A stretch of 64,000 nt of DNA from an uncultured bacterium (GCA_963978055.1 CAXBQZ010000006.1:4204-68203), one strand, 5' to 3'. Shown: positions 5,766-30,263, numbered from the stretch's first letter. Program-made: numbers and translations. The notes: a model not told the origin generated them from the letters alone.

Positions 5766-5920
5766 GGGACCCCTTCACGTAGACATTGCGGTTCGTTGCA
5801 CAACCTACTCCCCTTGAGATCGGGTTGACCGGCGGGTCGCTGAGTCGGCCTGATACGGTCCAAAACACCACGATGAACCTCCACAGCCAGCCGATCAGCC
5901 AACGTACGAGGAGTGAGCAC

Positions 5921-14319: not shown

Positions 14320-15033
14320 TCAGGCCTGCAGACCCAGAATCTGCATGCGCTGCGTGTGAGCTGCCGTAAGTCGGGTGAACATGGCGCCTATGTCGCCGAG
14401 ATCCATACCCGGACGTTCGGCGTCGCCGACGAGCAGTAGCGAGAGACCATCTCGCTCCGCAGCGACTCGCTGAGCCTGTGAGATCGCCTCACCAACGAAC
14501 CTACGTCCCCAGAGCGCCAGCCGACCGCCAAGTCGTGGATCACGATCAATAGCGGCGACGATGGTCGCGACGGCGAAGTTCGCATGACCCGTGTCACTGC
14601 AAACATCAAGGACGAGATCCCGGGTAGGCCCATCCAACTGATGTGCGATCTCACGATAGAAATCTGATGCGATTCCGTCACCGACGTACGCCTTCACCAG
14701 ACTCTCGTACCAGTCACTCGGAGCCGTCGCCGCGTGGAACTCCTCAATGGGCTCCACGAACGGGGTCATTGCATCGACGGGGTCAACCCCGAGTTCGGCC
14801 AACCGCTCAGCCAGCAAGGTGAAGTGCCGAATCTCCGCACTTGCCATGAGCGCCAGCGCAGACTTATCGGCAAGGGTTGGCGCTGAGGCGGCATCTGCCG
14901 CAAGGCGCTCAAAGGCAACCAGCTCGTTATACGCAAGAACACCAAGCAGGTCGATCACACCCGCCCGATATGCAGGATCTGACATCACGTCAGGTTCTAA
15001 AGCATCCGATGGGTTATTCGGCATCTGCGTCAC
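14320..15033 (-). CDS. Ferritin-like fold protein (MiaE-like)
   Basis: DLLGVLAYNELVAFERLA, E..HF, WYESLVKAYVGDGIASDFYR, LALWGRR..GEA, HTQRM. Start uncertain (GTG 15033, ATG 15024 or 15057). Confidence 0.82.
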   Translation of the reverse strand: MTQMPNNPSDALEPDVMSDPAYRAGVIDLLGVLAYNELVAFERLAADAASAPTLADKSALALMASAEIRHFTLLAERLAELGVDPVDAMTPFVEPIEEFHAATAPSDWYESLVKAYVGDGIASDFYREIAHQLDGPTRDLVLDVCSDTGHANFAVATIVAAIDRDPRLGGRLALWGRRFVGEAISQAQRVAAERDGLSLLLVGDAERPGMDLGDIGAMFTRLTAAHTQRMQILGLQA

Positions 15034-15147
15034 GAAGGGTGAATCTACCCGCCCCATCGCCCGCTCGCGGCATGAGGCGAGGAATTCATCGCAATCCCCA
15101 AAACCTGATTGGCACTTGTCATGGCAAAGCTGGCCGCGCTGAGCGGG

Positions 15148-15177
15148 TAGACTGATCCCACAACCGATGCTACGGAG
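15148..15177 (+). promoter_or_regulatory. Putative -10 box (TAGACT) and RBS (GGAG) of the DEAD helicase gene
   Basis: TAGACT at 15148-15153; GGAG at 15174-15177, 6 nt before CTG 15184. Confidence 0.5.
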
Positions 15178-15183
15178 CAGATT

Positions 15184-16737
15184 CTGAGCACCATCTCACA
15201 GGACGGAGCAGCCGAGGTCGACGTCACGTCCACCGACACTGCCCCGGCAAAGCCCAAGACTTTCGCCGAACTCGGCGTCAACCCTGCCATCGTCAAGGCT
15301 CTTGCCGAAGACGGCATTATCACCGCCTTCCCTATTCAGGAGCAGACCCTTCCACTCGCACTCGGTGGCTCTGATCTCATCGGCCAGGCGAAGACCGGTA
15401 CCGGGAAGACTCTCGGCTTCGGTATCCCCGCCCTATCACGGCTGGTGGCACCCGGAGATGACGAATGGTCACAACTGCCCGAGGCAAAGAAGGGCAAGCC
15501 ACAGGCGCTGATCATCGTGCCAACCCGCGAGTTGGCGCTGCAGGTCGCAACTGATCTGGAGAAGGCCGGACGCTACCGCGGGGTGCGTGTCCTGTGCGTC
15601 TATGGTGGTCGAGCCTATGAGCCCCAGGTCGAATCCCTCCAGCGTGGTGTCGAGGTAGTCGTCGGGACCCCCGGTCGACTGATAGATCTCGCCAAGCAGG
15701 GTCACCTGAATCTCAAGCATGTGGCAACCCTCGTCCTCGACGAGGCTGACGAGATGCTCGATATGGGCTTCCTGCCTGATGTGGAGCGCCTGGTATCGCT
15801 CGTACCGGCAGTGCGTCAGACAATGCTCTTCTCCGCCACGATGCCAGGTCAGATCGTCGCGCTGGCCCGTCGCTACATGAGTCAGCCAACCCATATCCGC
15901 GCGTCCGACCCCAATGACTCAGGATCAACGGTTGATGCGATCGAGCAGCATGTATGGCGAGCCCACAGCCTCGACAAGCAGGAACTCATCGCGCGTGTAC
16001 TCCAGGCCGAGGGACGTGGGCTCACCATCATTTTCTGTCGCACGAAGCGAAATGCACAGAAGGTCGCAGATGATCTCAACGAGCGGGGATTCGCAGCGGC
16101 TGCTGTGCACGGTGACCTCGGTCAAGGTGCGCGTGAGCAGGCACTGCGAGCTTTCCGCAACGGCAAGGTTGATGTTCTGGTCGCAACAGATGTCGCCGCC
16201 CGGGGAATCGATGTCGCCGACGTCACCCATGTCATCAACTGGGAATGTCCGGAGGACGATAAGACCTACCTGCACCGGATCGGACGTACCGGTCGGGCTG
16301 GCAGCAGCGGTGTGGCAGTCACCCTGGTGGACTGGGATGACCTTCATCGCTGGAAGATGATCAACCAGACTCTGGGTCTGCCATTCGCCGAGCCAATCGA
16401 GACGTACTCCTCCAGCCCCCATGTGTACACGGGCCTGGGAATCCCCGAGGGAACAAAGGGAAGGCTCCCAAGTTCAGCCAAGACTCGCGCGGGGCTTGAG
16501 GCCGAGGAGCTCGAAGACCTTGGTGAGACGGGCGCTGCCAAGGGTCGACGATCCAAAGGCTCCGGCAGTAGTGGATCTCGTAGTGGATCTAGTGGTGGGT
16601 CCTCGAGCGGTGGCAAGACGCGGGCCACATCTGCCTCCGCTGGCGAGTCCAAGCAACCAGAGACTGCCGCCAAGGCGCCCCGCTCGGGCAAGCCAAGACA
16701 GCGACGTCGCACCCGGAAGAGCTCCAGCACCGAGTAG
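15184..16737 (+). CDS. DEAD/DEAH-box RNA helicase (RhlE/DeaD-like), probable non-canonical start
   Basis: Q motif (TFAELG...AFPIQEQTLP) and Walker A (AKTGTGKT) lie in frame upstream of the ORF-track start 15445, followed by PTRELA, TPGR, DEAD, SAT, HRIGRTGR. No ATG/GTG/TTG lies in frame between TAG 15148 and the Q motif. Confidence 0.88.
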   Translation: MSTISQDGAAEVDVTSTDTAPAKPKTFAELGVNPAIVKALAEDGIITAFPIQEQTLPLALGGSDLIGQAKTGTGKTLGFGIPALSRLVAPGDDEWSQLPEAKKGKPQALIIVPTRELALQVATDLEKAGRYRGVRVLCVYGGRAYEPQVESLQRGVEVVVGTPGRLIDLAKQGHLNLKHVATLVLDEADEMLDMGFLPDVERLVSLVPAVRQTMLFSATMPGQIVALARRYMSQPTHIRASDPNDSGSTVDAIEQHVWRAHSLDKQELIARVLQAEGRGLTIIFCRTKRNAQKVADDLNERGFAAAAVHGDLGQGAREQALRAFRNGKVDVLVATDVAARGIDVADVTHVINWECPEDDKTYLHRIGRTGRAGSSGVAVTLVDWDDLHRWKMINQTLGLPFAEPIETYSSSPHVYTGLGIPEGTKGRLPSSAKTRAGLEAEELEDLGETGAAKGRRSKGSGSSGSRSGSSGGSSSGGKTRATSASAGESKQPETAAKAPRSGKPRQRRRTRKSSSTE

Positions 16738-16754
16738 TTCACTAGGCTGACGCC

Positions 16755-17567
16755 ATGACCGAGCCGACGCACTCCTACTTGTTCGTACCAGCGTCGACTC
16801 CAGACCGAATTCCCAAGGCGATGGCCACGGATGCACACCGGGTCATCATCGATCTCGAGGATGGGGTTGGGTTCGAGGCCAAGGAGCATGCCCGACAGGG
16901 CTTGGCCGAGGTTGTGCTCAACCAACCTGCTGTACTCAGAATCAATGCGATCGGCACTCCGTACTTCGATGACGACATCGCGGTTGCAGCACAGTTGCCT
17001 TGGGTTGAGGCGGTGATGCTCCCGAAGGTGGAGTCACCCCTTCACGTCGAGCGGATCCGCTCAGCACTGCCCGCACACATCAAGATCTTGGCGCTCGTTG
17101 AATCAGCTCTGGGTATCGTGCGCCTGGACGATATCGCCGCGGCTCGCCCAGATCGGCTCATCTTTGGAAGTGCTGACTACCTTGCCGATATCGGGGCTTC
17201 CTTCAGCAGCGAGGTGCTCAATTACCCGCGGACGAGGCTGGTGATCGCAAGTCGAGCCTTCTCACTGCCCAGTCCAGTTGATGGGCCGGCCATCGTCATG
17301 AAGGATCTCGACGCCATCCGAGCCGACTCACAGGATGCTCGCGGGCTAGGTATGGGTGCCAAGCTGTGCATCCATCCAGCCCAGGTTCCGGTGGTCAATG
17401 AAGTATTCGGCATCAGTGACGAACAGCGCCGCTGGGCTGAGGCTGTGCTGGCTGAAGCGAAGAACCACAGCGGTGCGTTCTCCTTTGAAGGTGACATGAT
17501 CGACGAACCCATCCTCAAACGTGCACGCCTGATGCTGGCGAACGCCGGCGTGCGCAGGCCGAACTGA
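16755..17567 (+). CDS. CitE/HpcH-HpaI family CoA ester lyase (citramalyl-CoA lyase-like)
   Basis: SYLFVP, IDLEDGV, LRIN, MLPKVES, VESALG, FGSADY, PVDGP, KLCIHPAQV. Confidence 0.85.
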   Translation: MTEPTHSYLFVPASTPDRIPKAMATDAHRVIIDLEDGVGFEAKEHARQGLAEVVLNQPAVLRINAIGTPYFDDDIAVAAQLPWVEAVMLPKVESPLHVERIRSALPAHIKILALVESALGIVRLDDIAAARPDRLIFGSADYLADIGASFSSEVLNYPRTRLVIASRAFSLPSPVDGPAIVMKDLDAIRADSQDARGLGMGAKLCIHPAQVPVVNEVFGISDEQRRWAEAVLAEAKNHSGAFSFEGDMIDEPILKRARLMLANAGVRRPN

Positions 17568-17589
17568 CCACTCTGCAATACAGTTCAGC

Positions 17590-18813
17590 GTGGCCACAGT
17601 TCCCGCCCCCCTTGAGGGGCTTCGCATCATCGATGTTTCGACCTATGTCGCTGGCCCCAGTGGCGCAATGACTATGGCCCAACTGGGTGCGGACGTCATA
17701 CGCGTCGACCCGATTGGTGGCGCCCCAGATGTCCGCCGACTCCCCCTGGCGCCCGGCGGCCAGAGCCTGTTCTGGGCGGGCCTGAACAAGGGCAAGAAAT
17801 CGATCGAGATCAACCTTGGATCCGATGAAGGCCGCGAACTCGTTCAGGCGCTCATTACCTCCCCTGGCCCAGACGGTGGTTTCGTCCTGACGAACTCGGT
17901 CGGGGCGAAATGGCTGGAGTACGAAGAACTTAGCAGGCTACGTGAGGACGTCATCAAGGTCTTCATCAGGGGACGCAGTGATGGCAAGGCCGCTGTCGAC
18001 TACACCATCAATGCCGAGGTCGGCATCCCCTGGCTCACGGGGCCGATCGAGAGCGGCCACCCGGTCAACCACGTGTTGCCCGCATGGGATCTGATGACGG
18101 GTGTCTACGCGGCGACCGCGGTGCTGGCAGCCGAACGGGTACGGAACCGCACGGGTCGAGGGCAGAACATCGATATCAGCCTGGCGAACGTGGCCGTGGC
18201 TACGATGGCCAATCTCGGATACACCGCCGATGTTCAGATCAATCAGAATAAGCGCGTCCGAGATGGAAACTTCCTCTATGGCGGATTCGGAATCGACTAC
18301 CAGACCGCCGACGATGTGCGCATCATGGTCGTGGCGCTCACGCCGCGACACTGGCGCAGTCTGATCGAACTGACGGGTGTTGCTGACGCAGTGGACCGAC
18401 TGCAGGAATCACTGGGCGTGAACTTCAGCATCGATGCCGACAGGTATACCCACCGACATGAACTGAACGATCTCATCCGCCCATGGTTCCAGGCACGCAG
18501 TGGTTCAGAGGCAATCACGGCCTTGGAGAAGGCCGGAGTGCTGTGGGGTCGCTACCGGACAGTGAGCGAGCTGGTCACCCAGCCTGACTCCCTGTTGCAC
18601 ACCAGCAGCCTGCTACATGAGATCGATCAGCCCGGCGTGGGCACCTACGCAGTACCCGGTCCTGTACTCGAGTTCTCCGGGTGGACAGCTGGTGAACCGA
18701 AGCCGGCCCCAATCCTCGGTGAGCACACCGATCAAATCCTCGGAACCATCCTGGGCCTGGCTGATCACGAACTTGTCGACCTGCGTCAACGAGGGGTTAT
18801 CGGCGGAGCCTGA
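17590..18813 (+). CDS. mct: Family III CoA transferase, mesaconyl-CoA C1-C4 transferase (2-methylfumaryl-CoA isomerase)-like
   Basis: Beyond the CaiB/BaiF fold it carries Mct-type segments: MAQLGADVIRVDPIGG, SLFWAGLNKGKKS, GRSDGKAAVDYTIN, PVNHVLPAWD, GNFLYGGFG, WGRYRTV, QPGVGTY, APILGEHTDQIL. Recognised from recall of Chloroflexus Mct. Confidence 0.75.
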   Translation: MATVPAPLEGLRIIDVSTYVAGPSGAMTMAQLGADVIRVDPIGGAPDVRRLPLAPGGQSLFWAGLNKGKKSIEINLGSDEGRELVQALITSPGPDGGFVLTNSVGAKWLEYEELSRLREDVIKVFIRGRSDGKAAVDYTINAEVGIPWLTGPIESGHPVNHVLPAWDLMTGVYAATAVLAAERVRNRTGRGQNIDISLANVAVATMANLGYTADVQINQNKRVRDGNFLYGGFGIDYQTADDVRIMVVALTPRHWRSLIELTGVADAVDRLQESLGVNFSIDADRYTHRHELNDLIRPWFQARSGSEAITALEKAGVLWGRYRTVSELVTQPDSLLHTSSLLHEIDQPGVGTYAVPGPVLEFSGWTAGEPKPAPILGEHTDQILGTILGLADHELVDLRQRGVIGGA

Positions 18814-19598
18814 CCACCTTGACTGGCATCGGAGGCAGCCGAGCCAAGACCGAGCAACTGACGCGCATGTTCGCGGTAGATCTCCGAGCCACGCAGATGT
18901 GGAGCCGTTGACAGCACCGTGCGACCGATGGCCGGGGCCTCTGCAAACCGCACCGAGCGCGGAATCGGTGGCTCGAGTACCGGCATCTGGTAGCGGACAC
19001 CAATATCGCTCAGCACTGCCTGCGCGTGCGTTGTGCGTCCGTCAAACATGGTGGGCAGAAAGCCGAGGACCACTAGATCAGGATTGGAGACCTGCTGGAC
19101 TTCCGTGACGGTCTCAATCACCTGACCGACACCTCGGTGCGCCAATGTCTCGCACTGCAGGGGTACCAATACCTCATGTGCGGCCGTGAGAGCGTTGACC
19201 GTGAGAATCCCAAGGGTGGGCGGGCAGTCGAGCAGCACGAGGTCGTAGTCGTCATCGATCAGCGCGAGGGCTCGCTGCAGGGTGAACACAGCATTGGATC
19301 GACCGACCAGCATCGCCTCGGACTGGGCCAGATCGATGGTGCTGGGGAGCAGATGTACACCCTCATCGGTGGAGATGATCACGGACCGAGCGGAAGCCTG
19401 CCCGGTGATGACCTCATGCACTGAACTGTCCAGATGCTCTGGGTCGATTCCGAGAGAGAAGGTCAGACAGGCCTGTGGGTCCAGATCCACCAGCAACACA
19501 CGTTGACCCAACTCTGCAAGCGCCACGCCGAGCGATGCAACAGTCGTGGTCTTGCCCACGCCACCCTTTTGGCTGGCAACGGCAATGCGACGTGCCAC
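18786..19598 (-). CDS. ParA/Soj-family ATPase (orphan, Rv3213c-like)
   Basis: QKGGVGKTT, VDLDPQ, LDCPP, PLQCE, PTMFDGRT, IPRSVRFAEAP; GGAGG RBS. Confidence 0.9.
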   Translation of the reverse strand: MARRIAVASQKGGVGKTTTVASLGVALAELGQRVLLVDLDPQACLTFSLGIDPEHLDSSVHEVITGQASARSVIISTDEGVHLLPSTIDLAQSEAMLVGRSNAVFTLQRALALIDDDYDLVLLDCPPTLGILTVNALTAAHEVLVPLQCETLAHRGVGQVIETVTEVQQVSNPDLVVLGFLPTMFDGRTTHAQAVLSDIGVRYQMPVLEPPIPRSVRFAEAPAIGRTVLSTAPHLRGSEIYREHARQLLGLGSAASDASQGGQAPPITPR

Positions 19599-19693
19599 TG
19601 GACCTCCTTCGCTGCCGGTGCAACCTCTGGTCCCACTCTAGGCAATCGCGCTGCCATGTGCAGCAACGCATCAGATGACCGTACGATGCCCCT

Positions 19694-20557
19694 GTGAGCA
19701 CACCGCCATCAGTCACATTCCCCGATTCAGTTCAACGAGTCACCTTCACCACTCGACGTGCCTCGCTGGCTGGTGTTCGGATCGATGCCGATGAGCCGCA
19801 CGGAACCGTTGTTCTGGTACCTGGATTCACTGGTTCCAAAGAGGACTTCATCGAGCTCTTCGTCCTGTTGTCGAACCTCGGTTGGACGGTTGTGTCCTAT
19901 GACCAGCTGGGCCAGCATGAGTCCGCGGGTCCTGATGATGAGAGTGCCTACACGCTGGATCTCTTCGCTCAGGACCTGCTCGATATCGTCAGCCAGTTGC
20001 CCTCAGGGCCAGTTCATCTTGTCGGCCACTCCTTCGGGGGACTGGTCAGCCGACATGCTGCCCTCATTGACCAAGGCGAACTCCTCACCTCCCTGACCCT
20101 GTTCTGCACCGGGCCGGGGCCGATCAATGTCGATCGACATGAGAATCTCAATGCGCTCGTGGGCGCTCTTCCGCACACCCCGCTGCCCATCATCTACGAG
20201 ATCATGGAAGCTGCAGACCGGGCGAGCGGCTGGGAGCCGCCAAGCCAGGAGGTTGCTGATCTTCTGCGCTCAAGATTCCTGAGCAACTCCCCACATGGTC
20301 TGCGCAGCAAGGCCTCCATCCTGCTGACGAATACCGACCGAACGGACGAACTCGCGGAGTTGGCCACATCCGGCTTTCCTGTGTTCGTTGTCTACGGTGA
20401 GGACGATGACGCCTGGCCCACCGATGAGCAGGATGCAGTGGCCGCCGCGGTTGGCCAAGCGGCCGTGGTGGTATCAGATGCCGCGCACTCCCCGAACGTT
20501 GAGAACCCTGAAACAACGGCTCAGGTGTGGAACGCACTATTTCGCTCAGTGCCGTGA
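19694..20557 (+). CDS. Alpha/beta-fold hydrolase
   Basis: LVPGFTGSKEDF, DQLGQHES, GHSFGG, GEDDDAW, AAHSPNVE. Confidence 0.9.
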   Translation: MSTPPSVTFPDSVQRVTFTTRRASLAGVRIDADEPHGTVVLVPGFTGSKEDFIELFVLLSNLGWTVVSYDQLGQHESAGPDDESAYTLDLFAQDLLDIVSQLPSGPVHLVGHSFGGLVSRHAALIDQGELLTSLTLFCTGPGPINVDRHENLNALVGALPHTPLPIIYEIMEAADRASGWEPPSQEVADLLRSRFLSNSPHGLRSKASILLTNTDRTDELAELATSGFPVFVVYGEDDDAWPTDEQDAVAAAVGQAAVVVSDAAHSPNVENPETTAQVWNALFRSVP

Positions 20558-20584
20558 GCGCAGGAGATTTCTCCCACCTCCGGT

Positions 20585-20609
20585 GTGTGAAATCCGGACA
20601 AAGTGGGTA
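20585..20609 (+). promoter_or_regulatory. Possible SigB/SigF-type promoter
   Basis: GTGT-N16-GGGTA ending 7 nt before ATG 20617; one mismatch to the GTTT-N15/17-GGGTA consensus. Confidence 0.35.
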
Positions 20610-20616
20610 GAGAGCC

Positions 20617-21042
20617 ATGGTGACGACATTTACGCTCGACCTGCGCCCCGAGCCGATGTCCGCACCCCAGGCCAGGGCCGCTATCCGTGAGTTCCTGACT
20701 GCCGCATGGCTCGGTGCCGACATCCAGTACCTCGCCACGCGAATCGATGACGCCCTGCTGGTCACAACGGAACTCGTCAGCAACGCCATCCGCCACGGAT
20801 CAGGACATGTTCACCTGCATGCAGCCGCTGATGTCGTCGATGGTGAGCCAACCGTGTGCCTTGAATGTCGTGACGACGGGCAGTGGAACGAAACCGACGT
20901 GCACTCCACCGATGAACTCGAAGACACGTTCGAAACGATCGGTGACGGGGGCCGTGGTCTGCTCATCGTTCAGGCGCTATGCAGTGAGGTGGTCATCAGC
21001 CATCAGCACCCCGGTTCACTCGTCCGAGCGTGCATCCCCTAA
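20617..21042 (+). CDS. ATP-binding protein, RsbW-like anti-sigma/Ser kinase (HATPase_c_2)
   Basis: AR.AIREFL, TELVSNAIRHG (N box), RDDG (G1), GGRGLLIVQAL (G2). Confidence 0.85.
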   Translation: MVTTFTLDLRPEPMSAPQARAAIREFLTAAWLGADIQYLATRIDDALLVTTELVSNAIRHGSGHVHLHAAADVVDGEPTVCLECRDDGQWNETDVHSTDELEDTFETIGDGGRGLLIVQALCSEVVISHQHPGSLVRACIP

Positions 21043-21050
21043 CCCCGGAA

Positions 21051-21962
21051 TCAGTCGCTGCTCACATCGGGACGATCCTCTGCCAATCCATCCCAGGGTT
21101 TGATCTCTGCTGAAGCATCCTGACCGACCGGACACCAGCGCCGATAGTCACACCATGAGCACATCGTGCTCGGTCGGGCTGGGAAGACAGCATCAATAGC
21201 CTCATGGGCCTGAACATCCCCATCCGAGGCGGGCGTCACCAGCTCGTTGAGACCGGATTTCCATCGCTCAGTTGCCTGGGCCGCCTCAGCTGCGATCTCC
21301 CCGGCCCGCTGCAAGTGGCGCTCAAGAGTTTGTGGTGAATGCTCGAATGCGGCCACAGAGATCGTCGGCAGATGATGTAGCTCAACTCTCCGGCAACGGC
21401 GGCGCAGGGTATTACTTGCCGCCACAACGTAGACAGCAAGGGCAAGGGAAGTCCGCGCATCGTCCACCGTGAGGGGACGGCGCCCGGTCTTGTAATCAAC
21501 GATCACGAGCTCGTCACCGCCATCGTCACTGGGGCGCAGATCAATCCGATCAACCCGCCCGGACAAAGCCATGGAGTGAGTTGCCTTCGAGACGGTGCGC
21601 TCCAACCCAATCGGATCAGCGTCGACATCCTGACCGCGTACGTATTCGACCGTCATATCCACTGCACTGTCACGCCATTCGCGCGACTGGGCGTCATCGC
21701 GGAACCCCTCATCGATCCATCCCGACACCACCCGCTCGGCGGCATAGTCCAAGGTGCGACGACTCGGGTCGGCGGTGAACCAGTCACGGAGTGCGTTGTG
21801 AATGCTCAGACCCACGGAGTTGTGAGCCCAAGGACCAGCCTTGGGCTTGCGGTCCAGATAGGTGAAGCGAAATTTGCGCGGACAATCAGACCAGGTGACC
21901 AATTTGGTTGGTGTACATGAGAAAAGCCGAGTCGGCATCCCATCGAGTGTGTCCTGCTCCAC
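21051..21962 (-). CDS. RecB-family PD-(D/E)XK nuclease with predicted Fe-S staple
   Basis: SDCPRKF near the N-terminus, GRVDRID, IVDYKTG, C-terminal CSWCDYRRWCP. Confidence 0.85.
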   Translation of the reverse strand: MEQDTLDGMPTRLFSCTPTKLVTWSDCPRKFRFTYLDRKPKAGPWAHNSVGLSIHNALRDWFTADPSRRTLDYAAERVVSGWIDEGFRDDAQSREWRDSAVDMTVEYVRGQDVDADPIGLERTVSKATHSMALSGRVDRIDLRPSDDGGDELVIVDYKTGRRPLTVDDARTSLALAVYVVAASNTLRRRCRRVELHHLPTISVAAFEHSPQTLERHLQRAGEIAAEAAQATERWKSGLNELVTPASDGDVQAHEAIDAVFPARPSTMCSWCDYRRWCPVGQDASAEIKPWDGLAEDRPDVSSD

Positions 21963-21990
21963 TCACCGATCCTGTCACGGATAGCGGCGC

Positions 21991-24441
21991 CTAGCCACGA
22001 ACTCGAGTGCGGTCCGGATCATAGAAGGGGCGAATGGAGAGGGTGGCCGGATACGTTCGTCCGGCGATACTCACGGTGAAGCCACCCTCAGCCAACCAAT
22101 CTGCCGTGACCCCGGGCGCCCACTCGATAGTTGCCAGACCAACTGAGCCCCCGAGAGTGTGGCCATATGCTCCGGCCAGAACATAGCCGATCCAGACTCC
22201 GTCTCGATGGACAGGTTCGGCACCCCACAGGAGTGGGTCGGGATCATCAACCAGAATGGAAACGATTCGACTGGTCTTGTCCGCGCGCTGCGCTATCAGT
22301 GCGGACTTGCCACGGAACTCGGTCGGCTTATCCCAGGCAACGGCAAAGGCGAGTCCAGCCGTCACCGGGGTATCGGTGTTCTCGATATCCACTGCAAAGT
22401 CGCGGTAACCCTTTTCGAGTCTCAGTGAGTTCATCGCTGATAATCCCACCGGCCGGAGTCCGAGATCGACCCCGGCCCCCTCCATCGTCTCCCAGACCGA
22501 CACTGCCTGATCGGAAGGGACGTACAGCTCATATCCACACTCACCCACATACGTCACATGAAGTGCCAGGAGTCGCGAGTAGCCGATCTCGACGTAGCGG
22601 GCAGTCAGATAGGGAAATGCATTTTCCGACAGATCATCCGGGCTGACTCGACTCAGCAGTTCACGTGATGCTGGTCCCTGTACGGTGAGCAGTGCATAGC
22701 CTGCAGTGACATCGGTGATAACCGCGAACTCATCCTCATGGACCTCATCGCGAAACATCTTCTCCACCCTTCGGTGTGAGATGTCCGAAACCACGAGCAG
22801 GAACTCCGCCTCGTCCAGCCTTGTCACCGTGAGATCCGCTTCTATCCCGCCCACGTCGTTGAGCCACTGTGTGTAGACAACTCGACCGATATCTCCGGAC
22901 ACATCATTGGCACTCAGACGATCGAGCACGTGTGCTGCATGTGGGCCTTGGACAATGAACTTTGACATCAGCGTCATATCGATGACGCCGACTCGTTCGC
23001 GCACCGCTCGATGCTCGTCCTCCACCCATGCACGATGCTCCCCGAACCCCCAGCCGTGCGGCTCCTGCGGAACAACGCCAGTTGGTGAGAACCACTCCGG
23101 GAACTCCCAGCCGTGTGAACAACCAAACTTGGCACCGTTGGCGGCCCAAACATCATGTAGCGGTGAGCGACGGATATTCCTCGCGGTCTTGTTCTGGAAG
23201 TTGGGAAAGCCACCATCTCCCATCAGGACACCCAACTGCTCGACGGTTCGTTCCGTCCGGAATCTCTGGGTGTTCTCGAAAGGGAATGCGCGCGCCACGT
23301 GATAGGCGGCCATATCGACAGGTGCGACCCCGTCGACGATCCAGGACGCCAGGGCGCTGCCAAGTCCGCCACCGGTGAGAATGCCGACGGAATTTAGTCC
23401 GGCCGCTGCCCACATCCCGTCGAGCTCGGGGACAGGTCCCACCATCGGCATGACGTCATGGGTAAAACTCTCCGGACCGCAGAAGAACGTACGGATCCCC
23501 GCGGTTGCAAGGGTCGGCACTCGCTCCATCGCATCGTTGAGGAATGGCGTGACTCTCTCGTAGTCGGGCGGGATCGTGCCGAAGGCGAAGTCCATTGGGG
23601 CACCCTCTGGATGCCAGGCCTTTCCCACAGGCTCGAATAATCCGACCAGCAGGCCACCACCTTCCTCGCGCAAGTATCCATAGGAGCCAGGATCTTCAAC
23701 GATCGGAAGGTCGCGATGAACTCCGTCCATCGGCTCGGTGAGCAGGTAGTAGTGCTCGGCGGCCTGCAGAGGGATATCAACTCCGGCAGCTCGTGCCAGC
23801 TGTCGGCTCCACAGCCCTGCTGCGATCACAACGTGTTCACACTCGATCTCACCCTGATCGGTGACCACCCCGGTGACTCGTCGGCCCGAGGTGACAAAGC
23901 CGGTCACGGTGACACCTTCGACGATCGATGCACCGCCCTGCTTTGCCCCCTTGGCCAGAGAGGTGGCAACCCCCACGGGATCAGCGCGACCCTCATCTGG
24001 GACGTACGAGGCGCCGAGTACGTCAGCTGTCTTCATCAGCGGCCAGAGAGTGGCAACCTCGGCTGCAGAGATCAGCTCATTGGGAACTCCATAGCCGATC
24101 TGGAAATCCCGCTCGCGGATGATGCTCTCCAGATGCGGCTGATCACATGCGATGTGCAGATGCCCGACGGGCCGAAACCCGGTTGAATGGCCGGTCTCCT
24201 CTTCGAGCCGGGCATAGAGATCGCGGGAATAGCGAGACATCCACAGTGAGGTCTCAGTGTGATAGCCCATGCTGGTGATCAGGCCTGCCGCATGCCATGT
24301 GGTGCCTGCGGTCAGTTGATGCTTCTCGAGGACCACGACATCGGTAACACCCAGTTTGGTCAGGTGATAGGCAGTTGAGCAGCCGATCACTCCACCACCG
24401 ACGATGACCACACGTGCCCTGCTGGGGATCTGGTCAACCAT
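21991..24441 (-). CDS. Second GcvT-family FAD-dependent oxidoreductase (DMG/sarcosine dehydrogenase-like)
   Basis: VGGGVIG, GTTWHAAG, CGPESFT, TYVGECGYELY, LRLEKGYR. Start ATG 24441 (alternative TTG 24456). Confidence 0.9.
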   Translation of the reverse strand: MVDQIPSRARVVIVGGGVIGCSTAYHLTKLGVTDVVVLEKHQLTAGTTWHAAGLITSMGYHTETSLWMSRYSRDLYARLEEETGHSTGFRPVGHLHIACDQPHLESIIRERDFQIGYGVPNELISAAEVATLWPLMKTADVLGASYVPDEGRADPVGVATSLAKGAKQGGASIVEGVTVTGFVTSGRRVTGVVTDQGEIECEHVVIAAGLWSRQLARAAGVDIPLQAAEHYYLLTEPMDGVHRDLPIVEDPGSYGYLREEGGGLLVGLFEPVGKAWHPEGAPMDFAFGTIPPDYERVTPFLNDAMERVPTLATAGIRTFFCGPESFTHDVMPMVGPVPELDGMWAAAGLNSVGILTGGGLGSALASWIVDGVAPVDMAAYHVARAFPFENTQRFRTERTVEQLGVLMGDGGFPNFQNKTARNIRRSPLHDVWAANGAKFGCSHGWEFPEWFSPTGVVPQEPHGWGFGEHRAWVEDEHRAVRERVGVIDMTLMSKFIVQGPHAAHVLDRLSANDVSGDIGRVVYTQWLNDVGGIEADLTVTRLDEAEFLLVVSDISHRRVEKMFRDEVHEDEFAVITDVTAGYALLTVQGPASRELLSRVSPDDLSENAFPYLTARYVEIGYSRLLALHVTYVGECGYELYVPSDQAVSVWETMEGAGVDLGLRPVGLSAMNSLRLEKGYRDFAVDIENTDTPVTAGLAFAVAWDKPTEFRGKSALIAQRADKTSRIVSILVDDPDPLLWGAEPVHRDGVWIGYVLAGAYGHTLGGSVGLATIEWAPGVTADWLAEGGFTVSIAGRTYPATLSIRPFYDPDRTRVRG

Positions 24442-24534
24442 GGTCCACCCATTCAACGAGAGTTGACTATCATTCGATAGGCAACCCTAGCAATCCGCCG
24501 AGCTGCTCGGAAGCATTTCCGGCGATCACCGTTG

Positions 24535-25647
24535 CTACAGCAGGTAGGGCTCACACCAAGTCATCGGCAACCCCTGGGCCTGACTATCGCCGAGCACGAC
24601 GGACTCCCCCGGCCCAGCATCGATCCACGACAGCATGGGCCATGCCCGGATCACGACCGGGAATGAGGTGCCGATCCGGTCCTGATAGAACTCGCGTGAC
24701 ACCTCGATCAGAGGTGCTTCGGGGGATGCCTGTCGTGCCAGCGCGGTCAGGCAGCGGTCGAACTCACGGCGCTCAGCATCGGTCAGGTACATCCACACCG
24801 ATGAATGCCAGACGACCAGTGCCGTACCCTCCTCAAGGTGGAGGGAGGCAAGATGCTCCACGAGGTCACCGCGCACGATATCTACCGGGATCTCATCCAC
24901 GAGTTTCCACGCCCCGCGGAGCCTGTCGTAGCGGTCGAGTTGATCGGGCCACAGGAATGACGTGAGATGCAGACGACCATCGGTGGTCGTCACGTCGATC
25001 GGATCCCTGTCGACTCCGACCCGCTCAATGACGTGCGGATCAGCCAGGGGTGCCGAGAGACCAACCCAGGCATCCGTCAGCGAAACGGGTGAGTCGATCG
25101 GCCCAACCTCGACCCCATCACCCGAGATCCGCAGGTGATCTGCACGCAGATGAAGACCGGCACTGGCACCACACTCATGCAGACGGATCGGCAGGTGCCA
25201 CTCTGCCGACACCATATGAAGTACCCCAGCCAGGGCGCAGGCACGTGCGATCTCGTTGGTCTGCGGTGGACCAGCCAACAATTCCGGCAGTTCGTCCTTG
25301 TGATCAACAAGAGTGGTGACGAACGCGTCGAAGCACATCTGCCGTGACCGAGCATCTGCGGGAATCGATCCGCCCACGGTCGGATAGAACAGTGACAGTG
25401 CCGGCGCTCGACGCTCGAGCACGAGTCGATGGGCCGCTGCCAACACCCGCAGCGGGACCATGTCCCCAATGCGGGACCGAGACCATGGTTCGAGAGCCTG
25501 CGTCAATGCACTAGGACGACTGAGCTCCAAGGCTGCAAACCGGCAGATGCTCTCGTAGAGGGGAGAGCCGTTGATGGCCATTGCCTCGGCCTGACGAGCG
25601 AATAGGGCACTCAGGTCAGCGACATCATCAAACTCAGCAAGAGTCAT
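24535..25647 (-). CDS. DUF2332 domain protein
   Basis: SPLY, PQTNE..R, ECGASAGLHL, GVDRDPID, L.SFLWPDQ..R..RL, HSSVWMYL. Confidence 0.8.
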   Translation of the reverse strand: MTLAEFDDVADLSALFARQAEAMAINGSPLYESICRFAALELSRPSALTQALEPWSRSRIGDMVPLRVLAAAHRLVLERRAPALSLFYPTVGGSIPADARSRQMCFDAFVTTLVDHKDELPELLAGPPQTNEIARACALAGVLHMVSAEWHLPIRLHECGASAGLHLRADHLRISGDGVEVGPIDSPVSLTDAWVGLSAPLADPHVIERVGVDRDPIDVTTTDGRLHLTSFLWPDQLDRYDRLRGAWKLVDEIPVDIVRGDLVEHLASLHLEEGTALVVWHSSVWMYLTDAERREFDRCLTALARQASPEAPLIEVSREFYQDRIGTSFPVVIRAWPMLSWIDAGPGESVVLGDSQAQGLPMTWCEPYLL

Positions 25648-25653
25648 GGCGGA

Positions 25654-26853
25654 TCAGGAGCGCTTGTAGTCCTCGAGCAGTCGGCGACCGATAATCATGC
25701 GCTGGATGTCTGCGGTTCCCTCGCCGATCATGAGCATCGGGGCCTCCCTGTAGAGACGCTCGATCTCGTACTCCTTGGCGTAGCCATAGCCTCCGTGGAT
25801 GCGGAAGGAATCCTCCACTACCTGAGTGCAGTACTCACTGGCCAGGTACTTGGCCATTCCCGCCTCGAGGTCGTTGCGCTCACCGGCGTCCTTCTTCCGG
25901 GCAGCACGGACCATCATCTGGTGCGCAGCCTCCACCTTGACCGCCATATCCGCCAGGCGGAACTGGACTGCCTGGTGATCAGCGATCTTCTTGCCGAAGG
26001 TCTCACGCTGCTGGGCGTAATCGATTCCCAGTTCGAACGCACGTAGAGCAACACCACAGGCGCGAGCGGCCACATTGACCCGGCCCACTTCGACCCCGTC
26101 CATCATCTGGTAGAAACCCCGACCAGGTGTTCCGCCCAGAATTCTGTTCTCGGGGATTCGCAGGCCATCCATGACCAGTTCGGTGGTGTCGACGCCCTTG
26201 TAGCCCATCTTCTCGATCTTGCCGGGCACTGTGAGCCCAGGCCGGACCTCACCAAAACCGGAGGGCTTTTCAACCAGGAAGGTGGTCATCTTCTTGTAGA
26301 CGCTCGACTCCGGATCAGACTCATCATCGGTGCGCACCAGCACCGCCACAAGATTCGATGAACCCCCGTTCGTAAGCCACATCTTCTGGCCTGTCAGAAC
26401 GAACTCATCGCCATCCCTGACCGCTTTTGACCGGATGGCCGCAACATCGGAACCACAGTGCGGTTCAGACATTGAGAAGGCACCGCGCACCTCACCAGCA
26501 GCCATCTGCGGAAGGAAGTACTCCTTCTGCTCATCCGTACCGTGGTGCATGAGCATGTAGGCGACGATGAAGTGAGTGTTGACGATTCCACTGACGCTCA
26601 TCCAGCCGCGAGCAATCTCTTCAATCGCGAGCGCGTAGGTGAGCAGGGACTCGCCAAGGCCGCCGTACTCTTCGGGAATCATGAGTCCGAACACACCCAT
26701 CGCCTTGAGTTGCTCGACGATCTCAGTCGGATAGATATCACCGTGCTCGAGCTCTTGAGCGTTGGGGATGATCTCCTTCTCAACAAACTCATGGACGGCA
26801 GCAAGGATCTCCCGCTGGAGTTCGGTCAAGCCCTCAGTCTGAGCCAGGCCCAT
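25654..26853 (-). CDS. Acyl-CoA dehydrogenase (resembles the methylsuccinyl-CoA dehydrogenase of the Streptomyces ccr-meaA cluster)
   Basis: PEEYGGLG, FSMSEP..GSD, GQKMWLTNG, QETFGKKI, IHGGYGY, EGTADIQR; N-terminus LAQTEGLT and adjacency to an Mcl-like lyase match that cluster from recall. Confidence 0.85.
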   Translation of the reverse strand: MGLAQTEGLTELQREILAAVHEFVEKEIIPNAQELEHGDIYPTEIVEQLKAMGVFGLMIPEEYGGLGESLLTYALAIEEIARGWMSVSGIVNTHFIVAYMLMHHGTDEQKEYFLPQMAAGEVRGAFSMSEPHCGSDVAAIRSKAVRDGDEFVLTGQKMWLTNGGSSNLVAVLVRTDDESDPESSVYKKMTTFLVEKPSGFGEVRPGLTVPGKIEKMGYKGVDTTELVMDGLRIPENRILGGTPGRGFYQMMDGVEVGRVNVAARACGVALRAFELGIDYAQQRETFGKKIADHQAVQFRLADMAVKVEAAHQMMVRAARKKDAGERNDLEAGMAKYLASEYCTQVVEDSFRIHGGYGYAKEYEIERLYREAPMLMIGEGTADIQRMIIGRRLLEDYKRS

Positions 26854-26918
26854 CGTGCGTTCCTCTCATCTGTACGTCCCGCAAGTGTCTACCAAAGAGC
26901 ATCGAGCCGCAGGTCGAA

Positions 26919-27887
26919 CTAGGCCTCGGGCGGTTCGAAGGACTGGGTGCGCTGCATGCCCGCGGCACGACCCTTCGAGCTGATCACCAGAGCCATCTTG
27001 CGACTGGCCTCATCGATCATCTCGTCCCCCAACATCACTGCACCTCGGGCTCCTCCGTCAGCTGACGTGTAGTACTCGTATGCATCGAGGATCAGTTCCG
27101 CGTGATCGTAGTCCTCCTGCCGCGGTGAGAAGATCTCGTTGGCAATGGGAACCTGATCCGGATGTAGCACCCACTTACCGTCAAAGCCAAGGGCAGCCGA
27201 CCGCGCGGCCACTCGTCGATAGCCGTCAGGATCCCGCACCTGCAGATACGGGCCGTCAATCGCGGCCTTGTTGTTTGCACGCGCAGCCATGAGGATCCTC
27301 ATCAGTATGTAGTGGTAGGCGTCACCCTCGGTGTAGCCGGGAGGCTGCTCGCCGACGATGAGTGACTTCATGTTGATACTCGCCATGAAATCCGCAGGGC
27401 CGAAGATGATGGTTTCGATTCGTGGTGATGCAGCCGCAATGTCGTTGACGTTGTTGAGCCCGGCAGCATTCTCGATCTGCGCCTCGATCCCGATTCGTCC
27501 CACGGGCAGACCCATCGTCCGCTCGATCTGTGTCAGAACAAGATCCAGTGCCTCAACGTGACCAGCGTTCTGAACCTTGGGAAGCATGATGCAGTCGAGG
27601 TTGTGGCCCGCGTTCTCAACAACCTCCACCACATCTCGGTACGTCCACGATGTTGTCCAGTCGTTCACTCGAACGGTGCGGATCTTGTTTCCGTAACCGC
27701 CCTCATTCAGCGCCGCCACGATGTTCTTGCGAGCATCGGCCTTCGCCAACGGGGCAACTGAGTCTTCAAGGTCGAGGAAGACCTGATCGGCGGCCAGCCC
27801 CTTGGCCTTCTCAAGCATCTTCGGGTTACTTCCCGGAACTGCGAGATTAGATCGTCGGGAACGCCATTCACGTACCGCATCAGCCAT
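26919..27887 (-). CDS. CitE-family CoA ester lyase, malyl-CoA/beta-methylmalyl-CoA lyase (Mcl)-like
   Basis: RSNLAVPGSN, FLDLEDSVAP, RVNDWTT.WTYRDV, CIMLPKV, GIEAQIE, FGPADFMAS, IDGPY, GFDGKWVLHP, EMIDEASRKMA. Confidence 0.85.
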   Translation of the reverse strand: MADAVREWRSRRSNLAVPGSNPKMLEKAKGLAADQVFLDLEDSVAPLAKADARKNIVAALNEGGYGNKIRTVRVNDWTTSWTYRDVVEVVENAGHNLDCIMLPKVQNAGHVEALDLVLTQIERTMGLPVGRIGIEAQIENAAGLNNVNDIAAASPRIETIIFGPADFMASINMKSLIVGEQPPGYTEGDAYHYILMRILMAARANNKAAIDGPYLQVRDPDGYRRVAARSAALGFDGKWVLHPDQVPIANEIFSPRQEDYDHAELILDAYEYYTSADGGARGAVMLGDEMIDEASRKMALVISSKGRAAGMQRTQSFEPPEA

Positions 27888-27950
27888 AACCCAAGGTTAA
27901 CGATGTCCGATCGGCAATATGCCCCCCGGGTCTCCCTCATGGGAGGAGCG

Positions 27951-28868
27951 TTACACAGGTGGGAGCTCCGTCAGGGTCGGAGCATCACTTCCTCGGATCA
28001 CAAGAACGAGGCCGACGAGAAGCAGCAGCAACGCCGGAATGATGGACGCAGGCGGCACCTGACCGAGCCATACGGCCGCGATGATCACCGCTCCCGGCAT
28101 TTCGAGCAGAATCGCCAGACTTCCGACGGTGGCTGATGTCCGCTTCAGTGCCCGATTGACCAGGGAGTGCCCGAGAAGTTGTCCACCAAGAGTCACCGCC
28201 AGAATCGCGAGCCAGCCATTCACCCCGAACCCCGACATCGGGGTCCGGAAGATCCCGCACATGATCAGCAGAACCGCGGCCGCTGAGCCGTAGGCAATGG
28301 TCGTGTAGACAGGGTTTGCCACGGACTGACGAACCCTCTCACCAGATGTCATATAGGCAGCCGAGAGCACTCCCCCTATGAGCGCAAGCAGATCGCCGAG
28401 CAGGGAGGTCGGGTCGGTCGAGACATCGACCCCCGTCAGCAGAAGAACCCCGACCAGTGACAGTCCGATCCCCACCCAGACCTGCCTGCCGATCTGCACT
28501 CCCGACCATCGAGCGAAGAACGCGGCCCAGATGGGTTGAAGTGCCAGAAGCGCCGCCGATGACGCCACGGAGGTAAGCCGCAGACTGGTGATCCACGTCG
28601 CAAAGTGCAGAGCTAGCAGTGCGCCCGCGATCGAAGCCCCCCGGACGTTCGAACGGGTGAGACCCTTCCACTCGGCGCGATGACGAAACCACGCCCACGG
28701 GGCTGTGAACGAGCTGCCGAGCAGACATCGGTAGAACGAGATAGCTAACGCAGGCACCGTGCTGGCCGCAATGATCGGTGCCGCCGTTGAAAAGGCCGTC
28801 ACAGCCACTGCGAGCGCGAACAGGTCACCTGTTGTTGGACGCCCAAGGCTCACTGGACGATCACTCAT
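27951..28868 (-). CDS. DMT/EamA-family transporter
   Basis: About 10 hydrophobic helices in two repeats (LALHFATWITSL, GGQLLGHSLVN). Start moved to ATG 28868 because the longer ORF overlaps mgtE. Confidence 0.85.
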   Translation of the reverse strand: MSDRPVSLGRPTTGDLFALAVAVTAFSTAAPIIAASTVPALAISFYRCLLGSSFTAPWAWFRHRAEWKGLTRSNVRGASIAGALLALHFATWITSLRLTSVASSAALLALQPIWAAFFARWSGVQIGRQVWVGIGLSLVGVLLLTGVDVSTDPTSLLGDLLALIGGVLSAAYMTSGERVRQSVANPVYTTIAYGSAAAVLLIMCGIFRTPMSGFGVNGWLAILAVTLGGQLLGHSLVNRALKRTSATVGSLAILLEMPGAVIIAAVWLGQVPPASIIPALLLLLVGLVLVIRGSDAPTLTELPPV

Positions 28869-28997
28869 ATGAACATCCAACCGCGACCGCCGCCATTCCC
28901 CAAGCGTGGCATGACCTCGATTCAGGTGAAGGATCCAACCAGACGCCGCGACCGAAACTAGATCGGCCACGACCCGAGGGCCCGATAGGCTACGTCC

Positions 28998-30263
28998 ATG
29001 AGCGGAGCGCCAACCCGGGTATTTGTTGCGCGCCTTGCCGGTATTGCTGCCTTCGACCCGCGCGGAGACCAAGTCGGCCGGGTGCGTGATGTTGTTGTCA
29101 CCCTTCGACACGGGTCAAATCCTCCGCGGGTTCTGGGTCTGGTGATCGAGGTGCAGCCTCGTCGACGTATCTTCTGTCCGATGACTCGCGTAACGAGCAT
29201 CGATTCAGGGGCCGTCGTGACGACAGGGCTGCTCAACATCCGTCGATTTGAGCAGCGCAGTGGTGAGACGCTCGTCATGAGTGAGCTCCTCGACCGTCGG
29301 GTCACCCTCTTGGAGACAGACGAGGTCGTCACGGTTCAGGATGTCGCCATCATGCAGGAGCGCTCCCGTGACTGGGTGGTCTCGCGAATCTTCGTCAAGA
29401 AGCCCGGTAAGGGCCTTCGACGTCGCGGTGAGACGCTGACCGTGGAATGGAATGCGGTGTCCGGGCTCTCCCTTCATGATCCACAGCAGGGGGTCGACAG
29501 CCTGTTGGCTACCGTCGAGAAGCTGCGCCCTGCCGACCTGGCCAACGTGATCCACGAACTCACGCCCAAGCGTCGACAGGAGCTTGCGGCAGCACTCGAT
29601 GACGAGAAGCTCGCAGATGTTCTCGAAGAGTTGCCCGAGGACGATCGGATCGAGATTCTTGCCTCCCTCGATGGTGAGCGAGCCGCAGACGTTCTCGAGG
29701 AGATGGACCCGGACGACGCCGCAGACCTGCTGTCCGAGCTTCCCCCCGAGGAGGCGGAGGCGCTGCTATCTCTGGTGGAACCTGAGGAAGCAGAGGATCT
29801 GCGTCGACTTCTGCGCTATGACGACTACACCGCCGGCGGAATGATGACGCCGGAGCCGGTGATTCTGCCACCAGACTCCACGGTGGCCGATGCGCTGGCA
29901 CGAGTGCGCGATGCAGACCTTCCACCGGCACTCGCGGCACAGGTTTACGTCGTGCGTCCACCGTTCGAGACGCCCACCGGACGGTACCTCGGCGTCGCCC
30001 ACTTCCAGCGACTTCTTCGCGAGCCACCATCCACGCTCGTGTCTGCAGTGCTCGACGATTCACTCGAACCGATTGGGCCAGACGCTCCACTCGGCCAGGT
30101 CACCCGCTACTTCGCCACCTACAACCTGGTGGCCCTTCCGGTGGTGGATGAGGACGATCACCTGCTCGGCGCTGTCACCGTTGACGATGTGATCGACCAC
30201 ATGCTTCCGGAGAACTGGCGCGATGCCGACACCGCCGACCTCGTAGACGACGAGGAGGTGTGA
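28998..30263 (+). CDS. MgtE N-terminal/CBS domain protein with N-terminal PRC barrels (no membrane domain)
   Basis: FDPRGDQVGRVRD, LRPADLA, EEMDPDDAADLL repeats, TAGGMMTPE, YNLVALPVVD. Confidence 0.88.
   Translation: MSGAPTRVFVARLAGIAAFDPRGDQVGRVRDVVVTLRHGSNPPRVLGLVIEVQPRRRIFCPMTRVTSIDSGAVVTTGLLNIRRFEQRSGETLVMSELLDRRVTLLETDEVVTVQDVAIMQERSRDWVVSRIFVKKPGKGLRRRGETLTVEWNAVSGLSLHDPQQGVDSLLATVEKLRPADLANVIHELTPKRRQELAAALDDEKLADVLEELPEDDRIEILASLDGERAADVLEEMDPDDAADLLSELPPEEAEALLSLVEPEEAEDLRRLLRYDDYTAGGMMTPEPVILPPDSTVADALARVRDADLPPALAAQVYVVRPPFETPTGRYLGVAHFQRLLREPPSTLVSAVLDDSLEPIGPDAPLGQVTRYFATYNLVALPVVDEDDHLLGAVTVDDVIDHMLPENWRDADTADLVDDEEV

Follow-up and report, generated by a model that had tools for sequence, protein, structure and literature searches.

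Linkage of methylsuccinyl-CoA dehydrogenase and Mct-like CoA transferase genes in Actinomycetes, and a candidate route to pyruvate in a freshwater member of the class

The ethylmalonyl-CoA pathway and the 3-hydroxypropionate bi-cycle are regarded as separate inventions that have only Mch and Mcl in common. The former is encoded in Streptomyces tsukubaensis by the 6-kb emc operon, ccr-ecm-mml-mch-mcd, which this species requires for growth on acetate (PMC4606968), and its methylsuccinyl-CoA dehydrogenase (Mcd) has been defined from the P. denitrificans enzyme (PdMCD; 6ES9) by a 170-residue N-terminal extension and a set of substrate-pocket residues (PMC5798300). In the structure of the mesaconyl-CoA C1-C4 transferase (Mct, or 2-methylfumaryl-CoA isomerase, 8APQ) of Chloroflexus aurantiacus, Arg47 and Tyr136 hold the free carboxylate of mesaconyl-CoA, and Leu/Ile43 together with Phe101 form a "cork" proposed to seal the active site for intramolecular transfer (PMC9813914). 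A third system, the pseudomonad Ict-Ich-Ccl-Mcd(C4)-Msi cluster, leads from mesaconyl-C4-CoA through (S)-citramalyl-CoA to acetyl-CoA and pyruvate, and Ich-type hydratases also hydrate mesaconyl-C4-CoA (PMC12290011). That 2025 paper names as known Mcds only that belonging to the ethylmalonyl-CoA pathway and the C4-specific one of pseudomonads, and raises the link to citramalyl-CoA only as an option for synthetic biology (PMC12290011); in the literature, with most subscription journals outside our coverage, we found no description of a natural Mcd-Mct route, nor of Mct in Actinobacteria. Here we analyse a stretch of 64,000 nucleotides (GCA_963978055.1 CAXBQZ010000006.1:4204-68203, hereafter the window) from the metagenome-assembled genome (MAG) of a freshwater actinomycete (172 contigs, 95% complete), in which an mcl-mcd pair lies close to an accessory cassette made of an acyl-CoA lyase gene (lyase A) and an Mct-like transferase gene. 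Across the class, Mcd and Mct-like genes, usually with a Meh-like hydratase and often with a CitE lyase or PPDK, are recurrently linked in a conserved module of which the window is a loose and reduced example. The Mcd-Mct route is plausible as a general module and incomplete in this genome, where the Meh-type hydratase is absent.

From orthology and gene context we conclude that the pair at 25654-27887 encodes the predicted Mcl and Mcd of the actinobacterial type. Among solved structures the lyase (lyase B) comes closest to Methylorubrum Mcl (5ugr, 229 bits), followed by Rhodobacter Mcl1 (4l9y, 204 bits), CitE being far off, and it is 78-79% identical to the lyase found within two ccr-ecm-...-mcd clusters, L067 and L068. 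The acyl-CoA dehydrogenase (ACAD) has M. smegmatis FadE3 as its best solved relative and the core of PdMCD (6es9, 301 bits) as the second. The Streptomyces-like cluster L067 presents, with identities to the genes of our genome, ccr (80%), ecm (74%), the lyase B orthologue (78%), a 170-aa MaoC hydratase (mch) and the ACAD orthologue (79%); the 1.7-Mb genome G222, from the window's own order, shows the arrangement ccr-ecm-lyase-ACAD with no hydratase in between (L068), its ACAD being 78% identical to ours. Throughout the Streptomyces-like genus g38, ccr and the ACAD orthologue (78-81% identity) are found on one strand, some 3.6 kb apart. In our sample of 301 genomes of the class, used for all co-occurrence counts here and uncorrected for phylogeny, ccr and the ACAD orthologue occur together in 141, ccr alone in 18, the ACAD alone in 25 and neither in 117 (odds ratio 37).

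Compared with PdMCD, the window ACAD keeps the catalytic Glu535 and the equivalent of Arg421, and its gene context implies the same position in the pathway; unlike PdMCD, it is devoid of the 170-residue N-terminal extension and carries Thr, Phe, Met and Lys in place of Arg252, Ala285, Phe287 and Arg376. We rejected the argument that the protein is not an Mcd since it fails this signature, because the dehydrogenase of the Streptomyces-like operon, which displays the same active-site pattern, fails the same test. The reading of the ACAD as a housekeeping acyl-CoA dehydrogenase, to which its 83-97% identity across orders and its place in a conserved, lyase-free block in Nanopelagicales and Micrococcales had pointed, was dropped as well, because its orthologues end ccr-ecm-mcl-mch-ACAD clusters and track ccr. 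A 1232-nt metatranscriptome contig (run X8) covers the mcd/mcl junction (window 25880-27111) with one mismatch, which suggests that mcd and mcl are co-transcribed in situ. It is worth adding that the short actinobacterial Mcd is very conserved, with 83-97% identity among its best 120 matches, including proteins labelled Nanopelagicales, Micrococcales and Longivirga; that the residues assigned to carboxylate and methyl binding in the alphaproteobacterial enzyme are missing from it; and that an Arg at the equivalent of PdMCD position 282 is common to the window Mcd and M. smegmatis FadE3.

The mcl-mcd pair is the distal half of the actinobacterial emc operon, here split from the remaining genes, which stand on contig C3. 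On that contig ccr (C3:27087-28277, 603 bits against a cut-off of 379) is adjoined by epi (C3:28438-28818, 145 bits against a cut-off of 115), and a 660-aa B12 mutase, 74% identical to the ecm product of the Streptomyces-like cluster, is encoded 7 kb away (C3:17877-19859). A thiolase gene and meaB are divergent from ccr, a tandem 3-hydroxybutyryl-CoA dehydrogenase gene (hbd) is found upstream and a GlcD-like oxidase is encoded nearby; a second mutase is encoded on contig C1. Thus ccr, epi, ecm, mcd and mcl are all present across the genome. Neither isocitrate lyase nor malate synthase was found in the genome, and control genomes matched for both families. Since these two enzymes are absent, the ethylmalonyl-CoA pathway is most probably the organism's means of assimilating acetyl-CoA, and the genome-wide inventory that the original prediction had put forward as a check (ccr, epi, an ecm-like mutase, meaB, thiolase and hbd present, both glyoxylate-cycle enzymes not found) speaks for that pathway. 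Such genes are ordinary for Actinomycetes. The pathway logic is that of the Streptomyces emc operon, with the glyoxylate cycle absent from the window genome; the window genome differs in its split arrangement and in having no orthologue of the small Mch, only a 34%-identical paralogue on contig C52. A serine-cycle-like mtkAB-mcl module lies outside the window (G000:C21:29390-32463; L013:9390-12463). It consists of a third Mcl-type lyase, with 46% identity to lyase B, and then the malate-CoA ligase subunits beta (697 bits, cut-off 604) and alpha (above its cut-off).

As to the cassette, we assign its transferase, from sequence comparison, to the Mct family in the broad sense; it may transfer CoA either within the molecule or between molecules. 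The protein matches CoA_transf_3 (PF02515) with 208 bits and, among solved structures, Chloroflexus Mct (8apq) with 389 bits and Roseiflexus Mct with 383, the next family being SUGCT with 140. It aligns with 8apq over the full length, with one single-residue gap; it keeps the catalytic Asp165, in the motif LPAWDLMTG, together with Arg47, Tyr136, Asn100 and Asp135, all invariant or nearly so in 137 homologues (Arg47 in all 137, Tyr136 in 133), and as in Chloroflexus a lyase gene is adjacent. Unlike Chloroflexus Mct, it remains below the cut-off of the curated equivalog TIGR04253 (408.7 bits against 725). It also differs from the Chloroflexus system in that the window genome is without Meh, that the adjacent lyase is of the CitE/Ccl type and not a trifunctional Mcl, and that the organism is heterotrophic and shows no sign of the remaining bi-cycle. 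A FastTree phylogeny of 138 members of the Mct family, rooted with 3 distant family III transferases, gives the family a support of 0.95 and places Chloroflexus Mct inside it, together with actinobacterial proteins from PPDK-Meh-lyase-Mct clusters (L052, L053); the sister group of the window protein is a metagenomic clade whose genes are arranged lyase-PPDK-Mct-Meh. Lyase A matches HpcH_HpaI with 98.7 bits; its best NCBIfam model is RipC/Ccl (160.8 bits, below the cut-off of 375), its best solved relatives are CitE-type acyl-CoA lyases (8khl, 9nzb, M. tuberculosis CitE and human CLYBL), and it is 55% identical to the lyase of one lyase-PPDK-Mct-Meh locus (L029). The cassette is matched by short RNA contigs free of mismatches, and mcl-mcd by deeper ones; transcription of both units in lakes is therefore probable, contig depth being a poor measure and DNA carry-over possible. 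Among the homologous loci, a 235-aa open reading frame (ORF) upstream of the Mct-like gene in L022-L025, considered as a lyase or hydratase, proved to encode an FHA-like protein, and at L025:9377-11204, from a long-read MAG, the Mct-like gene is split over two frames by a frameshift or an assembly indel, with an Mcd orthologue (66%) directly after it.

The evidence that joins Mcd to the Mct-like transferase comes from the class as a whole. Mct-like genes occur in 15% of the sampled genomes (44) and ccr in 53%; the expectation of a pathway topology unusual for Actinomycetota is only half correct. An Mcd orthologue accompanies the Mct-like gene in 36 of 44 genomes, against 130 of the 257 others (odds ratio 4.4), and 14 of the 25 genomes with an Mcd orthologue and no ccr have an Mct-like gene. 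Of the 36 genomes with both genes, 13, representing 6 families, have them at most 10 kb apart, where by a rough estimate chance would give less than 1%; Mcd orthologues (63-81% identity) stand beside Mct-like genes in G185, G123, G297, G067, G186, G234, G268 and L025. Of the 301 genomes, 17 encode a Meh-like hydratase (double hot-dog fold, about 286 aa), and 15 of these also carry an Mct-like gene, mostly adjacent. Among the typical arrangements are Mcd-Meh-Mct (G297), Mct-Meh-Mcd (G123), lyase-Meh-Mct facing Mcd (G067) and PPDK-Meh-lyase-Mct (G131); Mcd-Mct neighbourhoods usually include a Meh-like hydratase and often a CitE lyase or PPDK. The closest outside relatives are ordered lyase-PPDK-Mct-Meh, an order that fits pyruvate as the product, PPDK converting pyruvate to phosphoenolpyruvate. 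A pattern scan of public species genomes for relatives yielded 8 loci only, 4 of them from one lineage.

In the route that we propose, Mcd would oxidise (2S)-methylsuccinyl-CoA to mesaconyl-C1-CoA, the Mct-like enzyme would shift CoA from C1 to C4, a hydratase would yield (S)-citramalyl-CoA, and lyase A would split the latter into acetyl-CoA and pyruvate, so that the pathway would have a branch to pyruvate in addition to the classical one, in which Mch and Mcl lead to glyoxylate and propionyl-CoA. For the hydration of mesaconyl-C4-CoA the only candidate here is the RipB/Ich-like protein encoded on contig C52. To us the chances that this sequence of reactions operates in the organism seem evenly balanced. 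It is tempting to hypothesize further, in a wider proposal that we put forward tentatively and with more doubt than confidence, that many Actinomycetes carry an undescribed module of Mcd, Mct, Meh, a CitE-type lyase and sometimes PPDK, leading from methylsuccinyl-CoA to pyruvate and acetyl-CoA. Together with ccr and ecm it would constitute a shortened ethylmalonyl-CoA pathway, an oxygen-tolerant net conversion of acetyl-CoA and CO2 to pyruvate; in genomes devoid of them it would serve to burn methyl-branched dicarboxylates; and this MAG would hold a reduced form in which the RipB/Ich-like hydratase replaces Meh. The two roles, acetate assimilation and C5-dicarboxylate catabolism, are compatible and do not exclude each other. 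If true, the Mcd-Mct-citramalyl-CoA link would add a new branch point to central carbon metabolism, providing pyruvate directly from C2 units and CO2 and bypassing glyoxylate, the carboxylation of propionyl-CoA and the B12-dependent methylmalonyl-CoA mutase, and many "Mct" annotations in heterotrophs would gain a role. The question also bears on the use of acetate, glycolate and small dicarboxylates by abundant lake Actinomycetes that have no glyoxylate cycle, and the route is directly testable, as its enzymes are all soluble and assays are established.

Several observations weigh against this route, beyond the fact that the counts above are uncorrected for phylogeny. Within the genome, a search by tblastn gave no homologue of the Meh-type hydratase (about 286 aa, double hot-dog fold), nor was one found in the genus. 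The Mch family model PF19315 has a single, partial match of 73 bits (C52:15035-15784), to a 171-aa MaoC protein that is 34% identical to the Mch of the Streptomyces-like operon, against 74-80% for the other pathway enzymes. The RipB_Ich model gives this protein 158 bits and the Streptomyces-like operon Mch 131, so that the models cannot separate Mch from Ich. Moreover, the pathway genes of G222 are ccr-ecm-mcl-mcd, with neither mch nor Mct, and the only Mch candidate in that genome is a hydratase of the same type; for this reason the single MaoC-type candidate may be required as Mch. A hydratase gene was also sought beside PPDK (contig C33) and around the C52 hydratase gene, and both neighbourhoods held only housekeeping genes. 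The window itself argues in the same direction, since the two pairs lie on opposite strands, about 7 kb apart and separated by six unrelated genes, and since lyase A and the Mct-like gene are inserted between the ParA and helicase genes of a conserved housekeeping block; within the genus 2 of 4 genomes have the cassette, and the other families of the order are without it. In the transferase the "cork" residues of the Chloroflexus enzyme are not kept, Leu43, Phe101, Arg75 and Arg104 being replaced by Pro, Ser, Gly and Ala; in most actinobacterial homologues position 43 is occupied by Thr or Pro and position 101 by Ala, and some keep Leu and Phe (L050, L051, L054, L057). Finally, Mct-like genes are independent of ccr in the class (24 of 44 genomes, against 135 of 257; odds ratio 1.08). 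In family f53, genomes of 5-6.5 Mb carry a thiolase, an Mct-like gene and an Mcd orthologue (70%) and neither ccr nor ecm, so the Mcd-Mct pair also works outside the ethylmalonyl-CoA pathway; at two f53 loci (G186:C1:1067015-1069395 and G166:C6:31318-33701; L059) the gap between the Mct-like and Mcd genes is 21 bp. The co-occurrence check proposed beforehand turned out positive for the Mcd orthologue. The original prediction had placed all four genes correctly and had named them rightly, Mcl and Mcd by orthology and Mct at the level of the family, and the 11-kb span that it described is real, though not a single operon. Its first interpretation, a short circuit of the upper ethylmalonyl-CoA pathway by Mcd feeding Mct, is partly supported: it is the best-supported reading, favoured by the presence of Mcd beside Mct-like and Meh-like genes in several families, and it is incomplete here, the want of Meh, the independence from ccr and the f53 genomes speaking against it.

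C5-dicarboxylate catabolism is a serious rival, and it takes its most explicit form in the view, to our mind rather unlikely, that the two units are independent. The mcl-mcd pair would then belong to an ordinary ethylmalonyl-CoA pathway, and the cassette would serve the salvage or catabolism of external branched C5-dicarboxylates (mesaconate, methylsuccinate, itaconate, citramalate), the Mct-like protein acting as an intermolecular CoA transferase, the RipB/Ich-like protein making citramalyl-CoA and lyase A cleaving it, as do Ict, Ich and Ccl. The accessory distribution of the cassette, the missing association with ccr, the replacement of the four residues and the f53 genomes all agree with independence, as do the presence of a RipB/Ich-like hydratase, the Ccl/CitE type of lyase A and the AMP-dependent ligase genes that adjoin Mct-like genes in L027, L047 and L049. 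The pseudomonad cluster, which serves itaconate and methylsuccinate, follows the same reactions from mesaconyl-C4-CoA onwards and, like the window, combines a family III transferase with a Ccl-type lyase and an ACAD. It differs in that its ACAD acts on the C4 ester and its transferase is intermolecular, whereas the window ACAD has its orthologues in the ethylmalonyl-CoA pathway (where the characterised alphaproteobacterial form uses the C1 ester), the window transferase is Mct-like, and no MmgE/PrpD isomerase gene is found near the window genes. Against independence, the transferase is much nearer to Mct than to any solved intermolecular transferase (at most 140 bits), and its alignment with Mct, broken by one residue only, leaves no insertion at the position of the Frc glycine loop. 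Neither a transporter nor a ligase gene is found beside the cassette in the window, and the recurrent partner in other genomes is the Mcd orthologue, whose expected C1 ester product would still need a C1-to-C4 shift before Meh or Ich.

We consider improbable a joint assimilation of glyoxylate and propionyl-CoA on the pattern of the second cycle of the 3-hydroxypropionate bi-cycle, with Mcl forming beta-methylmalyl-CoA, Mch, Mct and Meh leading on to citramalyl-CoA, and lyase A releasing pyruvate and acetyl-CoA. Mcl is present and reversible, malate synthase is missing and a GlcD-like oxidase is encoded near ccr, all of which would suit this scheme; its only backing from gene linkage lies in some Actinomycetes with a Chloroflexus-like PPDK-Meh-Mcl-type lyase-Mct arrangement (L052), whose Mct groups with that of Chloroflexus. 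It would demand both Mch and Meh activities from one MaoC-type candidate, elsewhere Mcd is a much commoner linkage partner of Mct-like genes than an Mcl-type lyase is, and the mtkAB-mcl module of the genome could handle glyoxylate via malyl-CoA. This scheme was the second interpretation of the original prediction, in which the glyoxylate would come from nearby amine- or glycine-yielding enzymes; it would require an Mch, which is not clearly present, and the product of the neighbouring DMGDH-type enzyme is glycine or sarcosine and not glyoxylate. Less probable still, and in our judgement very unlikely, is that the units lie close to each other by accident and that the substrate of the Mct-like enzyme is an unrelated dicarboxylyl-CoA and not mesaconyl-CoA. 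The insertion of both units into a housekeeping block, the score below the equivalog cut-off and the varied contexts of Mct-like genes (an FHA-like protein and an aldehyde dehydrogenase in L022/L023, thiolases elsewhere) would be in line with this, but the mesaconate-binding Arg and Tyr are conserved across the family and the linkage with Mcd, Meh-like, CitE-type lyase and PPDK genes is recurrent.

The arrangement of the window is given in Table 1. Lyase A/Mct-like and mcl/mcd are two separate units and not one operon; within the units the intergenic gaps are 22 nt (lyase A to Mct-like) and 65 nt (lyase B to ACAD). Both sit in a conserved actinobacterial housekeeping block, of which most of the intervening genes are part and whose order around the ACAD in Longivirga, Nanopelagicales and Micrococcales loci is Mrp, DUF1003, MgtE_N/CBS, ACAD, hydrolase, ParA and DEAD helicase. 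The EamA-family gene upstream of mcl is also found beside mcl-mcd in Longivirga (L032) and in G206 (L069), and beside the Mcd orthologue in G234 (L048); the transporter may lie outside the pathway. A scan of positions 15000-29500 for promoters and terminators returned fewer sites than shuffled controls and nothing usable.

Table 1. Position of the two gene pairs and of their neighbours in the window
Feature	Position	Strand	Remarks
Lyase A (CitE/Ccl-type acyl-CoA lyase, candidate (S)-citramalyl-CoA lyase)	16755..17567	+	270 aa; first gene of the accessory cassette
Mct-family (family III) CoA transferase, candidate mesaconyl-CoA C1-C4 transferase	17590..18813	+	407 aa
Intervening genes outside the pathway: ParA, alpha/beta hydrolase, HATPase_c_2, PD-(D/E)XK nuclease, DMGDH-like flavoprotein, DUF2332	18786..25647		Pfam
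mcd, predicted short actinobacterial (2S)-methylsuccinyl-CoA dehydrogenase type (ACAD without N-terminal extension)	25654..26853	-	399 aa
mcl (mml), predicted L-malyl-CoA/beta-methylmalyl-CoA lyase (lyase B)	26919..27887	-	322 aa
EamA-family transporter upstream of mcl	27951..29111	-	EamA 83.8 bits

The DEAD-box helicase ORF next to the cassette (window 15445-16737) begins with GTG at 15445; its true start is probably upstream, because the ORF enters the Pfam DEAD profile at position 39. Behind position 16569 an insertion of 12 nt is present in one RNA contig and looks like a strain variant. The DMGDH-like flavoprotein encoded between the two pairs carries a GcvT domain, and the genome has at least 5 paralogues of such DMGDH/sarcosine-dehydrogenase-type flavoproteins fused to GcvT (window 5786-8383 and 21991-24456, and contigs C48, C19 and C37), which suggests a heavy use of methylated amines.

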